A DNA stretch of 64,000 nt from Candidatus Atabeyarchaeum deiterrae (GTDB lineage: Archaea; Asgardarchaeota; Atabeyarchaeia; Atabeyarchaeales; Atabeyarchaeaceae): positions 2,304,001 to 2,368,000 of the forward strand of contig CP147780.1 in assembly GCA_037310415.1 (NCBI GenBank), in the 5' to 3' direction. The notes beneath the pieces were generated by a model. The model had not been told where the DNA came from and did not search any database. It saw nothing but the letters and a program-made list of their open reading frames with translations. The position numbers were made by a program, and so were the translations under genes. How positions within the stretch are numbered: the stretch's first letter is position 1; each line of letters begins with the position of its first letter. Shown in pieces: positions 58,508 to 61,552 of the stretch.

Positions 58508-59068
58508 TTCAAACACACCTAAGAACCAGATTAAGATTGAACGAAGTACTATTCAGGAATGATATAAAGGATTTGATGAATCACAGGAAAAATCTGAGTT
58601 CTGCCCACACGGTGAGCTTAGAGAAAACCATGAAGCTTCACACAAATCTCTTGCTGGAAATCGCTCTAGCCTCTATCCTTCAAAGTCTGCTCACGTGTTA
58701 ACGCCATAACACAGACTAAGAAAACCACTGTAAGCACAAAAAGGATCCAGAACAGCAATACATCAAGGTCTTCACGCAAAAAGCGACCAGTGAATAAGGA
58801 AGCAATATTGAGCACGACATGTAAACTACCACCTATTGAAATAAGGATCGCAATCCATAACTTCTTAGTAGGTGTATGCCCGGTTCCCTACCCACCTTCT
58901 ACCCTTCAGAGCACCCTTTCCGTCCTTACGTACCTTAGGTGCCAAGTCTCACCATGGAACGCGTCACCCAAAGCGTAAGACTATTGCCCGTGCGATGCGC
59001 AGCCAAGTGCAGTCGCCCACTAGCACAAGGTCTCTCTCAACAGAAAACACACTCAAAACAAAACTACA

Positions 59069-60313
59069 TTAGAAATTCCAAATCTCCCCTTTGAATAGCC
59101 AGTCTGGTATCACATAAGTTCTTGTCCTAGGATGATTTTGAAGAATAAGTCTCAGCATTCTAATTGCAGAATACGCCTCAATCATTAGTTTTCTTTGTTC
59201 CTTCAGATATTCTGGTTCAAATCTATCCTCATCTACTCTGTGAGCAGGCTTCATTCTCATTCTTCTAATCTTTCTGAAAGTCTCAATCATTTCGTCCTTG
59301 GGTCTTGGATCGGGCGTCCTGAACTTAATGTCTAACCAATCTTTGAGGAGGGAAATTGTCGCTTTCGGTCGAACCATCACTTTGCCATCAGATGTCTTTG
59401 TTTCAGTCAGGCAAGTCACATCACGTTGAAAGAAATCCTTGTTAATATTATCAGAAATCATCTTGTCTAACAAGAGGACAAAAGAGTTGTACTCCTTGAG
59501 AGTTGGACGGATTAAGTAAGCAAATTCTCTTGGTCTGTTTACTCTATAACTTTCACGGAAAAGACTAGGACGATCCATTAATCTTGAGAACTCGTTGATT
59601 GTATGCAGTTCTTCACAAAAAGCAACAAATATCGATTCTCTTTCATAGAAATTTCCTGCTGAACTTCTTGCATAATCAGGGTGCAAGAAATATTCGCCTG
59701 TTAGAACTTTGCTATTCCATATTTGCTGGTGTTCCGGTGTCAAGTACGCTAGATATCTGTAAAAGACAGCGACTGCGCGATTCCATGTGCCTTTCTCATA
59801 GCAGAACCCGAAAGACTGTAGCAGAACCTTGTCAGAAGCTTTCATCGACGAAGACGGGTAATACTCATCAGAAACGGAAATCCAGCCTTGAATGTCATCA
59901 CTAGAATAGATGTAGCGGGGGTCATTTCTGTAAGCTTCTAAAACGCTCAGATCAAAGACAGCATAGTTTAATTGTGGTTCACCCAATGCAATTTTCAAGG
60001 TGAATGGTCTATCCTTGAACTTGTTGATATCTACCACTCTTTCGAGGTGCTTTCTTGTTGGGTATGCACAAGCATTCTCTAACCCAATGCTCTCGATCTT
60101 CAAGATTTGCAGGTCTTTGTCGTCCAGTTCAAACGCTTTTATATGTGGATTTCGGTGCTTGTCCCCGAAATTGATCTCGATTGTACCCTCACGCACTAGG
60201 GCAATTATGTTCTCTTTTTCGGATTTGAGACCAGAAAGGGCTAGCCCGTTGAAGTCTCCGGATTTGAGATATTGGTAGGTTGTTTTTTCAAGTAATTCCT
60301 CTTTCTTCACCAA
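59069..60313 (-). CDS. Hypothetical protein with C-terminal HEPN-like Rx4H motif (candidate defence/toxin RNase)
   Basis: FRKIRRMRMKPAH (R-x4-H) in a helical C-terminus preceded by LDKMISDN; no Walker A motif seen. Confidence 0.6.
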   Translation of the reverse strand: MVKKEELLEKTTYQYLKSGDFNGLALSGLKSEKENIIALVREGTIEINFGDKHRNPHIKAFELDDKDLQILKIESIGLENACAYPTRKHLERVVDINKFKDRPFTLKIALGEPQLNYAVFDLSVLEAYRNDPRYIYSSDDIQGWISVSDEYYPSSSMKASDKVLLQSFGFCYEKGTWNRAVAVFYRYLAYLTPEHQQIWNSKVLTGEYFLHPDYARSSAGNFYERESIFVAFCEELHTINEFSRLMDRPSLFRESYRVNRPREFAYLIRPTLKEYNSFVLLLDKMISDNINKDFFQRDVTCLTETKTSDGKVMVRPKATISLLKDWLDIKFRTPDPRPKDEMIETFRKIRRMRMKPAHRVDEDRFEPEYLKEQRKLMIEAYSAIRMLRLILQNHPRTRTYVIPDWLFKGEIWNF

Positions 60314-60353
60314 ATTAGTCTAACACCAACGCCTGTTTGTTATGCTTCTTGAA

Positions 60354-60962
60354 TTAATCAGCATGACAGTTCCTCTGTTTGCGGGGTGCGCCAGCTATGT
60401 TCTCGAACCGTTTCTGAATACAGGGATGTGTGTCGAAGAGCCGTTTCATCCTGCCAATCAGTCCATGTTTCTCGGGATTGCCATACATGAGCCTCAACGC
60501 CTGCCTAATGGACTTCTTACCTGCAATTTTTGCAGCCAGAGTGTCAGCCCGCAACTCATCCCTCCTGTCTCTCCACCTTGAGATCAAAATGGAGACACGA
60601 TAACTGACGTATAGAACGGCTAATATCGCAAGCAACGTTACATCACACCTAACGAAAGGAGGAAGCGCTGCAGCAAGCATTGGATACATCACAACAAAAA
60701 TGATCGCAGACAGGATCTCCAGGGCAATCAAAAGCATGATATGCAAGCAAAGGCGTCTCCAGTAATTCCTGCAATGGTACCCCTCGTGAGCAATCACGCT
60801 TCTCATCTGCTGCTCGCTTAGACTTGAAACGAGTATAGGTGCGATGCTTATCCTCCCGTATTTCGTATCCGCATAATGAGCATCAACCGAAACTGCAATT
60901 TTGGGGATCTTTTCCAAACCTATCTTTACTGAAACCTCCTTCGCAAGCTTTCCTAAGTTCAC
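60354..60962 (-). CDS. M48 (HtpX-like) membrane zinc metallopeptidase
   Basis: VIAHEGYH, two TM helices, ELRAD, THP..KR. Confidence 0.85.
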   Translation of the reverse strand: MNLGKLAKEVSVKIGLEKIPKIAVSVDAHYADTKYGRISIAPILVSSLSEQQMRSVIAHEGYHCRNYWRRLCLHIMLLIALEILSAIIFVVMYPMLAAALPPFVRCDVTLLAILAVLYVSYRVSILISRWRDRRDELRADTLAAKIAGKKSIRQALRLMYGNPEKHGLIGRMKRLFDTHPCIQKRFENIAGAPRKQRNCHAD

Positions 60963-60964
60963 CC

Positions 60965-61150
60965 TTACATGCCCCCATAGACAGCCAACTTCTCTACGTT
61001 TGTCTTTGCCACATCTTCGATCTTCCCAGTCAAGTCTCCAACCTCTGCTGATTTTCCCTCTCCACTAAGGAATTCCCCCTTCACTGCGATGTCAATACAA
61101 GCTATGCTATGTGGCGTTCTTAAATCTTCCATTCCTCCCACAGACGACAA
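60965..61150 (-). CDS. Small hypothetical protein (61 aa, start uncertain)
   Basis: Stop lies 2 bp before the M48 start, suggesting an operon. Confidence 0.4.
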   Translation of the reverse strand: MSSVGGMEDLRTPHSIACIDIAVKGEFLSGEGKSAEVGDLTGKIEDVAKTNVEKLAVYGGM

Positions 61151-61552
61151 ACCCGTTATCGGTATTCGCTCGTCCTCGTTGTCGTCTTAAACCTAGTGGA
61201 AATTTATAGAATAATGTCCCTATTGAAATAGGTGGCTTTCCATAGGAGTCGATTCAAGGTGCACTGCACCGAAACCGAGCCCCTCATCGGAACGCAACAG
61301 TCCGTTTACATAGTATTGCGCGCTGCAAGCTCTCAGCCCACATTTGTGTTATTTGCCGAACTTAAGAACTCAACGGAAGTAGTTCCGCAATTCCTCCATC
61401 CTTTGAAAAAAGGGTGGTCTCCTTGCGGAGGTTTCTATGAGGCGACTCATATCCTTTCTTGCGGATAGCGGCATTTACCTTCATCCGAAAAATCAATAAA
61501 TATCTGTTCTCTCTCTTGGATCCACTATGCTCGAAGGAGAGGTGTGACTCAT

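Follow-up and report, generated by a model that had tools for sequence, protein, structure and literature searches.

Introduction

Insertion sequences (IS) of several kinds, among them the IS1111-attC group and the members of IS3 and IS110 that target repetitive extragenic palindromic (REP) sequences, land on structured palindromes. Such hairpin-targeting elements are autonomous, carry their own transposase, occur in many copies and leave little or no target duplication. Elements bounded by short direct repeats have been described in the archaeal lineage considered here: the Yucahu-i elements of Atabeyarchaeia-1 are flanked by an 11-bp AT-rich direct repeat, and sequencing reads show both their excision and their circles, the parent element encoding a tyrosine integrase (Valentin-Alvarado et al. 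2024, PMC11529989). The mini-Yucahu-i of 2644 bp circularises too, yet an integrase is not among its listed genes (PMC11529989). In bacteria, restriction-modification units that lack mobility genes have been found inserted with duplication of the target (Furuta et al. 2010, PMC2853133). Here, we describe a locus in a 64,000-nucleotide stretch of the genome of Candidatus Atabeyarchaeum deiterrae (contig CP147780.1, positions 2,304,001 to 2,368,000; the whole stretch is called the window below) at which a foreign segment of 2375 bp, carrying three genes and no recombinase, interrupts the end hairpin of a miniature IS200/IS605-family element (mini-IS). An earlier note, made from the letters of the same DNA, had read this locus as a mini defence cassette mobilised through a tyrosine-recombinase-type chromosomal site. 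The study in PMC11529989 lists four integrated elements for this genome, and the locus is not mentioned in its main text or in that of its preprint.

A duplicated core in a split repeat unit

The 12-mer CCTATTGAAATA flanks the segment in two exact copies whose starts lie 2387 bp apart, and it occurs four times in the whole genome (2.76 Mb, one contig, complete). The left junction reads CCA-core-AGGA and the right one GTC-core-GGTGG. When one core and the intervening DNA are deleted, the outer sequences fuse into CCACCTATT-GA-AATAGGTGG, a perfect dyad of two 9-bp arms around 2 bp, which would be the reconstructed attachment site (attB). The core copies, coordinates and junctions given in the earlier note, and its statement that removal of 2387 bp restores this dyad, are exactly reproduced. 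A survey of the direct repeats of at least 12 bp in the window, spaced 300-10000 bp apart, yielded a fusion dyad with 9-bp arms for one pair in 790, the core pair itself, with arms of at most 6 bp for all others.

A mismatch-tolerant search of the genome for the fused 20-mer placed this palindrome in a larger repeat. It is intact at C1:311764 and has one mismatch at 2085282 and at 408331, and all three copies (one intact, two with a mismatch) carry matching flanks on both sides. At C1:311764 the left flank, TAAACTA, matches the left junction of the window and the right flank matches the right junction over about 225 bp. Two of these repeats, copy A (311757-312151) and copy B (2085275-2085673), have a length of about 395 bp, sharp ends in common and 89% identity to each other. 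In a three-way alignment the window copy consists of unit positions 1-22 (58822-58843), then the insert, then unit positions 11 onward (61219-~61440). The 12-bp duplication at the core is therefore a true one and not a chance repeat, because a single well-defined repeat unit has been split with a 12-bp overlap. The parts of the locus are as follows.

58832..58843, plus strand: direct repeat 1, CCTATTGAAATA, exact match
61219..61230, plus strand: direct repeat 2, CCTATTGAAATA, exact match
58822 to ~61440: mini-IS overall, interrupted by the 2375-bp insert
58822..58843, minus strand: right end of the mini-IS, its last 22 bp, 100% identical to copy A at 311757-311778
58844..61218, minus strand: 2375-bp insert with three genes, single copy in the genome
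61219..61442, minus strand: main part of the mini-IS, running from its hairpin as far as the left end, 90-95% identical to copies A and B (aligned over 311767-312151 of copy A and 2085285-2085673 of copy B)

Read in the orientation of the element, 58822..58843 holds the 3' arm, the loop and part of the 5' arm of a hairpin, together with the terminal TAGTTTA. The window copy also lacks 162 bp that copies A and B carry after 61308, and its left-end hairpin is CCATCCTTTGAAAAAAGGGTGG. The locus is thus nested: a mini-IS lies between two genes, and a foreign segment splits the right-end hairpin of that mini-IS. The proposal of a recombinase-less 2.4-kb segment set into a pre-existing palindrome is borne out by the intact palindrome elsewhere in the genome and by the 12-bp duplication. 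The further step of taking the palindrome for a tyrosine-recombinase-type chromosomal site has to be given up, the palindrome being the end hairpin of the mini-IS that occupies 58822-58843 and 61219-~61440.

The palindrome as a transposon end

Judged from its TnpB-encoding relatives, recurring ends, paired hairpins and folding, the repeat unit is a miniature, protein-less element of the IS200/IS605 family (TnpB-type), and the palindrome is its right-end hairpin, the last stem-loop of a guide-RNA-like scaffold. The guide RNA of TnpB elements lies at the right-end side. In the mini-IS, the right-end hairpin CCACCTATT-TC-AATAGGTGG stands 7 nt from the element end and the left end has a hairpin of the CCCCCCTTTTTCAAAGGGTGG type, so that related subterminal hairpins mark both ends of an element without terminal inverted repeats. 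The right-end 216 nt of copy A fold with a z of -3.6 against shuffles, with the hairpin formed, and in one copy of the right end in this genome the interior of the stem differs in sequence yet stays fully paired through compensation. In this genome, ends resembling the right end enclose, at 408324-409592, a gene for a 422-amino-acid (aa) TnpB with a PF07282 zinc ribbon, the reading frame of which continues through the hairpin. We compared two sister genomes of the same family as the source genome, G001 (Atabeyarchaeia-1) and G002; in the latter, five loci have TnpB-homologous sequence between such ends, nearly complete at four and in three pieces at the fifth (L185). Beyond these loci, TAAACTA-CCACC-N10-GGTGG-CTT is an end shared by Atabeyarchaeia, another Asgard metagenome-assembled genome (MAG), Hadesarchaea and Nitrososphaera, with 10 further copies across several genomes.

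The left boundary of three copies carries CTCAT or CTCAC, a number too small to define an insertion motif, and no flanking duplication is seen. No cognate TnpA for the mini-IS was found in the genome, whose one Y1_Tnp gene sits in an element with different hairpins. TnpB-only relatives are commonly without TnpA. The insertion separates the scaffold of the window mini-IS from its terminal 10 bp and would thereby inactivate that end of the element. An origin of the 12-bp stagger in a cut by TnpB was considered and rejected, as no TCAT-type motif was seen at a suitable distance from the hairpin.

Several observations touch on this family of ends. The genome's only Y1 TnpA lies beside a TnpB at 1377345-1379000 (G000:C1:1377345-1379000, G000 being the source genome), and the end hairpins there differ from those of the mini-IS family. 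At G000:C1:1021214, on the minus strand, 16 nt (AACTACCACCTATTGA) agree exactly with the mini-IS right end before running into unrelated sequence; they apparently fall within the 3' end of a coding region, and may be a relic of another element end or a chance match. In G001, a mini-element of about 70 bp at C1:2394604-2394672 (L180/L195) is barely more than the two end hairpins of the mini-IS family. Finally, the 20-bp palindrome occurs four times in one Ignavibacteriales MAG (L172, L173, L176) in another context, TTTTG-palindrome-CAAAA, and looks there like an unrelated bacterial repeat or terminator-like element.

Content and origin of the insert

The insert carries three genes, all oriented as tnpB would be in the element, together with a candidate promoter of its own.

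58844..59068, minus strand: non-coding tail of 225 bp that follows the 414-aa gene, its minus strand rich in G
59069..60313, minus strand: 414-aa protein, winged helix plus HEPN-like part, no family assignment
60354..60962, minus strand: 202-aa M48-like membrane metallopeptidase with HEGYH, PF01435 at E 7e-13
60965..61150, minus strand: open reading frame (ORF) of 61 codons, orphan, no family hit
61199..61206, minus strand: TATA-like CTATAAAT inside the insert, putative promoter of the cargo genes by direct reading

This segment is foreign DNA, because the flanking genes are adjacent in the sister genomes, the insert is absent from both G001 and G002, and its G+C content is lower (0.39-0.43 for the 414-aa gene vs 0.46-0.50). 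No second copy exists elsewhere in the genome, and the insert genes were not found in 40 sampled relatives. Domain profiles, a repeat search and direct reading revealed no integrase, transposase or terminal inverted repeats in the insert, in agreement with the earlier note; no inverted repeat pairs the two insert ends, which are not repeated elsewhere in the genome. The cassette was clearly inserted, and the palindrome is not the product of a deletion: TnpB-encoding copies, like distant lineages without the cassette, have kept the hairpin whole, which makes the intact form the ancestral one.

The 225-bp tail has no match in Rfam and is not conserved beside homologues of the 414-aa gene. It was considered as a second guide-RNA scaffold or as a distinct element end and rejected as either, with a folding z of +0.97 against shuffles, no repetition in the genome and no occurrence of its junction string in genome contigs. 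Scans for tRNA genes and Rfam families over the window and the locus returned nothing relevant. Excision of the insert was also checked for the restoration of a split gene, and would not restore one.

The cargo genes

The 414-aa protein has more than 1100 homologues in archaea and bacteria, and sequence searches of Pfam, PADLOC, NCBIfam and PDB gave no useful match to it. Its predicted structure (predicted local distance difference test, pLDDT, 91) combines an N-terminal winged helix, a central alpha/beta part and a C-terminal helical bundle. Across 37 homologues, the histidine of an R-x4-H motif (H358) is invariant and the arginine (R353) nearly so. The resemblance of the C-terminal bundle to HEPN toxins is weak (Z 5.1-5.2, against 7.4 for generic helical matches), as is the top Foldseek match of the protein, RnlA at E 0.15. 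From the motif and the modelled fold, a HEPN-type defence or toxin role is plausible.

The 414-aa gene has been widely transferred. In relatives at 75-82% nucleotide identity the shared stretch is the gene alone (window 59066-60312), and the neighbours of the homologues vary; they include an HNH nuclease, a weak transglutaminase-like match, an MjaI restriction-modification pair, a VirB4/TraG-like ATPase and an integrase. Neither the M48-like nor the 61-aa gene lies beside any of 115 homologues. Phages yielded no match, and plasmids gave three distant matches in uninformative contexts. The homologues often have a different same-strand gene in front (L071, L074, L075, L083/L084; window 60354-60962), namely an HNH nuclease, a below-threshold transglutaminase-like protein, an unknown 314-aa protein or, here, the M48-like peptidase. 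This variety of upstream partners may point to a module of two genes in which the partner is exchangeable. In two metagenome loci (L083:1737-2979, L084:6001-7243) the homologue is split into frames of 148 and 285 aa, apparently by a frameshift.

The M48-like protein has the HExxH zinc site and scores 49.3 bits against PF01435, with a cut-off of 20.3. It is an orphan, with only HtpX-like relatives at 25-27% identity, and its 202 aa are short compared with the 316 aa of the HtpX-like matches. An identical protein is present on 7 other contigs, and one identical to the 61-aa product on 4 (Logan contigs, up to 9.9 kb); the latter product may instead be 55 aa long, from an ATG preceded by GGAGG. 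To judge from their distribution, the three cargo genes do not form a conserved unit, because close relatives of the 414-aa gene have nothing but this gene in common with the insert and the other two genes are orphans. The cargo put forward in the earlier note as a mini defence cassette is therefore not a conserved cassette.

Flanking genes and sister genomes

The mini-IS and its insert lie in the promoter region of two divergent genes, read as belonging to fatty-acid/4-hydroxybutyrate pathways.

57068..58516, minus strand: left flanking gene, 482 aa, HpaB_N and HpaB (Pfam, E 3e-93 and 4e-58)
58517..58821: intergenic DNA between the left flanking gene and the mini-IS, its first ~85 bp aligning with the sister genomes
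58666-58815, minus strand: 49-codon ORF with one hydrophobic stretch and no relative
61544..62449, plus strand: right flanking gene, 3-hydroxyacyl-CoA dehydrogenase (Pfam 3HCDH_N and 3HCDH)

The left flanking protein, of the HpaB family, is one we take to be 4-hydroxybutyryl-CoA-dehydratase-like. Its orthologues in G001 and G002 are 88-89% identical and lie directly beside the 3HCDH gene; in both genomes the two genes are adjacent and divergent, with about 200 bp between them. TATA-like boxes of both flanking genes are recognisable in all three genomes, and a TATA-like GATATAAA lies near 58562 within the sister-aligned part of the intergenic DNA. The remainder of the left intergenic DNA, past the first ~85 bp, has no match in G001 or G002 and no family hit. 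Within the ~200 bp between the sister genes there is neither a mini-IS nor a trace of the palindrome. The DNA that is extra here amounts to about 2.9 kb, which exceeds the 2387 bp between the cores.

These comparisons bear on what the earlier note expected of the surroundings. Its distance of about 320 bp from the site to each flanking gene holds, at 316 and 313 bp. Its empty site of about 640 bp is not the ancestral state, given the ~200 bp of the sister genomes and the ~2.9 kb of extra DNA here. The fused palindrome that it required of relatives without the cargo is absent from the sisters, an outcome that by its own terms formally refutes it, though for a reason it did not foresee: they lack the mini-IS as well.

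Elsewhere in the window, a CRISPR-like array occupies 13150-15700, with many units of a 29-30-bp repeat, CTTTCCAAACTACTAGGTCAATCTCAAAC, at a period of 65-68 bp.

How the insert may have arrived

We give about an even chance to core-mediated integration by a recombinase that was supplied in trans or has since been lost, because the direct repeat is exact, 12 bp long and AT-rich, terminal inverted repeats are missing and the Atabeyarchaeia offer a precedent. The segment would have arrived as a circle or an excised element, and conservative recombination within the 12-bp AT-rich core would have integrated it. The enzyme would most likely have been a tyrosine integrase, either provided in trans or formerly the product of a gene of the element, since lost. 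What remains would be immobile or at best non-autonomous: a candidate HEPN-type defence gene, an orphan M48-like peptidase and a micro-ORF with their own promoter. Both junctions hold the identical 12-bp core, the reconstructed site is dyad-symmetric, and neither terminal inverted repeats nor a transposase is present. The genome has three tyrosine recombinase genes (PF00589), near 497401, 1009195 and 2038804, none of them within the window region. Mobilisation by a host XerA-type or helper recombinase, as the earlier note proposed, is a conjecture.

Several findings weigh against such an integration. The circle junction (attP), which the earlier note had taken to be dyadic as well, is weak in this respect, with 3 of the 5 pairs that involve the insert matching (p ~0.1). 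The genome scan for further modules with the same core, suggested in that note, turned up no second cassette and a single split hairpin, and the mini-IS copies retrieved from G001, G002 and other genomes are all intact. Nor did the search that it had proposed for an empty allele or a circle bring either to light: the hypothetical circle junction is absent from the viral contig collection and the left junction string from the genome contig collection, and no empty allele of the window mini-IS copy is present in the collections searched. The integrase-bearing element resident in this genome has another motif, AATTAACTTAT, near its integrase at 497401. Elsewhere the three genes are not linked, so that the insert could be a fragment and not an element. 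Finally, a staggered cut would equally leave a 12-bp duplication.

The resident element is of some interest in itself. Some 7 kb separate the published 11-bp motif AATTAACTTAT, present as its reverse complement, from a tyrosine recombinase frame of 434 aa (G000:C1:490569 and 497401-497943), and the region fits the published 7848-bp element iMGE-xvi of Atabeya-2 (PMC11529989).

Two other routes, both unlikely on present evidence, would place the segment in the hairpin with an identical scar. Hairpins are fragile sites, and microhomology-mediated joining or template switching at a hairpin break or a stalled fork could have captured the DNA with no dedicated recombinase; we regard this as unlikely. 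In its favour, the cargo is of mosaic make-up and forms no unit elsewhere, and restriction-modification systems without mobility genes are on record as inserted with a duplicated target (PMC2853133). However, the documented duplications are long and variable, above 30 bp, and a precise 12-bp overlap requires the same 12-mer in the donor. Alternatively, an enzyme acting in trans (a DDE transposase, a casposase-like Cas1 or similar) may have made a 12-bp staggered cut in the hairpin, leaving a target-site duplication. The exact duplication, the unrelated insert ends and the presence in the genome of several transposon families and a CRISPR locus would fit, but there are no terminal inverted repeats, the insert ends are not repeated in the genome and the insert is single copy. 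Casposons produce duplications of 14-15 bp with terminal inverted repeats, and Cas1-Cas2 duplicates a whole repeat of ~30 bp. We hold this transposition-type route to be unlikely, perhaps slightly more so than capture.

Two readings would put the origin of the 12-bp repeat elsewhere. In one, the whole 2.6-kb unit is a cargo-carrying IS200/IS605 derivative that transposed as one, the repeat predating its arrival. The unit does keep an undamaged left end and the final 22 bp of its right end, and its cargo is oriented like tnpB, yet no second copy exists in this genome, the genome contigs or G001 and G002; moreover, a bulged 6-bp stem is all that is left of the terminal hairpin, and the genome's only Y1 TnpA belongs to an element with different hairpins, which leaves this reading improbable. 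In the other, copies A and B descend from a cassette-bearing ancestor that lost the DNA between its 12-bp repeats by deletion. Such a deletion does leave one repeat copy, as in A and B, but intact hairpins occur in TnpB-encoding full-length copies and in distant archaea without the cassette, and a chance event would not yield a perfect, conserved 9-bp stem; it is very improbable. Practically negligible is the view that each motif serves a flanking gene as a separate operator, or that the repeat is due to chance. The right core copy is in itself a palindrome (6-2-6), with a TATA-like box about 13 bp downstream of it, but both motifs belong to one split repeat unit, the sister genomes have no such motif upstream of the flanking genes, and the pair is the sole one of its kind among 790. 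The earlier note had itself raised the operators as an alternative, which is thereby excluded. Readings as a group II intron, an IStron, an integron cassette or a casposon were rejected by direct reading of the insert ends, and because neither genes nor RNA hits of these kinds turned up.

Significance and comparison with known systems

Should the insert be a recombinase-less element that used a transposon hairpin as its attachment site, two classes of mobile elements would be linked, and the Atabeyarchaeia, a lineage for which excision read data exist, would gain a concrete integration site. A bolder version, which we consider quite improbable, is that the conserved TnpB-type guide-RNA hairpin serves as a landing pad for recombinase-less cassettes by way of a host or helper recombinase. 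If true, transposon relics would become sites of defence-gene acquisition in Asgard archaea, perhaps to be re-mobilised with their cargo. Independently of the route, the locus offers a well-resolved nested insertion by which a horizontally transferred, defence-like gene reached an Asgard promoter region, with one instance known. It also carries a lesson, in that a "perfect palindrome" was explained by an ordinary IS200/IS605 end.

The host element of the insertion resembles the miniature IS200/IS605 elements (palindrome-associated elements and IS1341-type relatives) in its length of ~395 bp, its lack of terminal inverted repeats, its paired hairpins, its sharp ends and its multiple copies. The window copy differs from them in the 2.4-kb foreign insert in its right-end hairpin and in its 162-bp internal deletion. 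As for the insert, Yucahu-i and mini-Yucahu-i share with it the archaeal lineage, the short AT-rich direct repeats and, in the mini form, the want of an integrase, whereas the core here has a different sequence, the target is a transposon hairpin and no sign of mobility was seen for the insert. The integrative mobile elements exploiting Xer (IMEX) and the pdif modules are likewise recombinase-less modules at dyad-symmetric sites, which borrow Xer recombinases and to which the earlier note had likened the insert; in contrast to theirs, the site here is not a dif-like chromosomal or plasmid one, and only one module has the core. The restriction-modification units of Furuta et al. are similar in their defence-type genes, their lack of a recombinase and their flanking repeats derived from the target, but their duplications are variable, exceed 30 bp and are bacterial, compared with 12 bp inside a hairpin in an archaeon. 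With the hairpin-targeting IS elements the insert has in common a structured palindrome as landing site, although it is without a transposase and in single copy. Thus, the segment is best filed as a recombinase-less, probably defence-related one inserted into the end hairpin of an ordinary miniature IS200/IS605 element.

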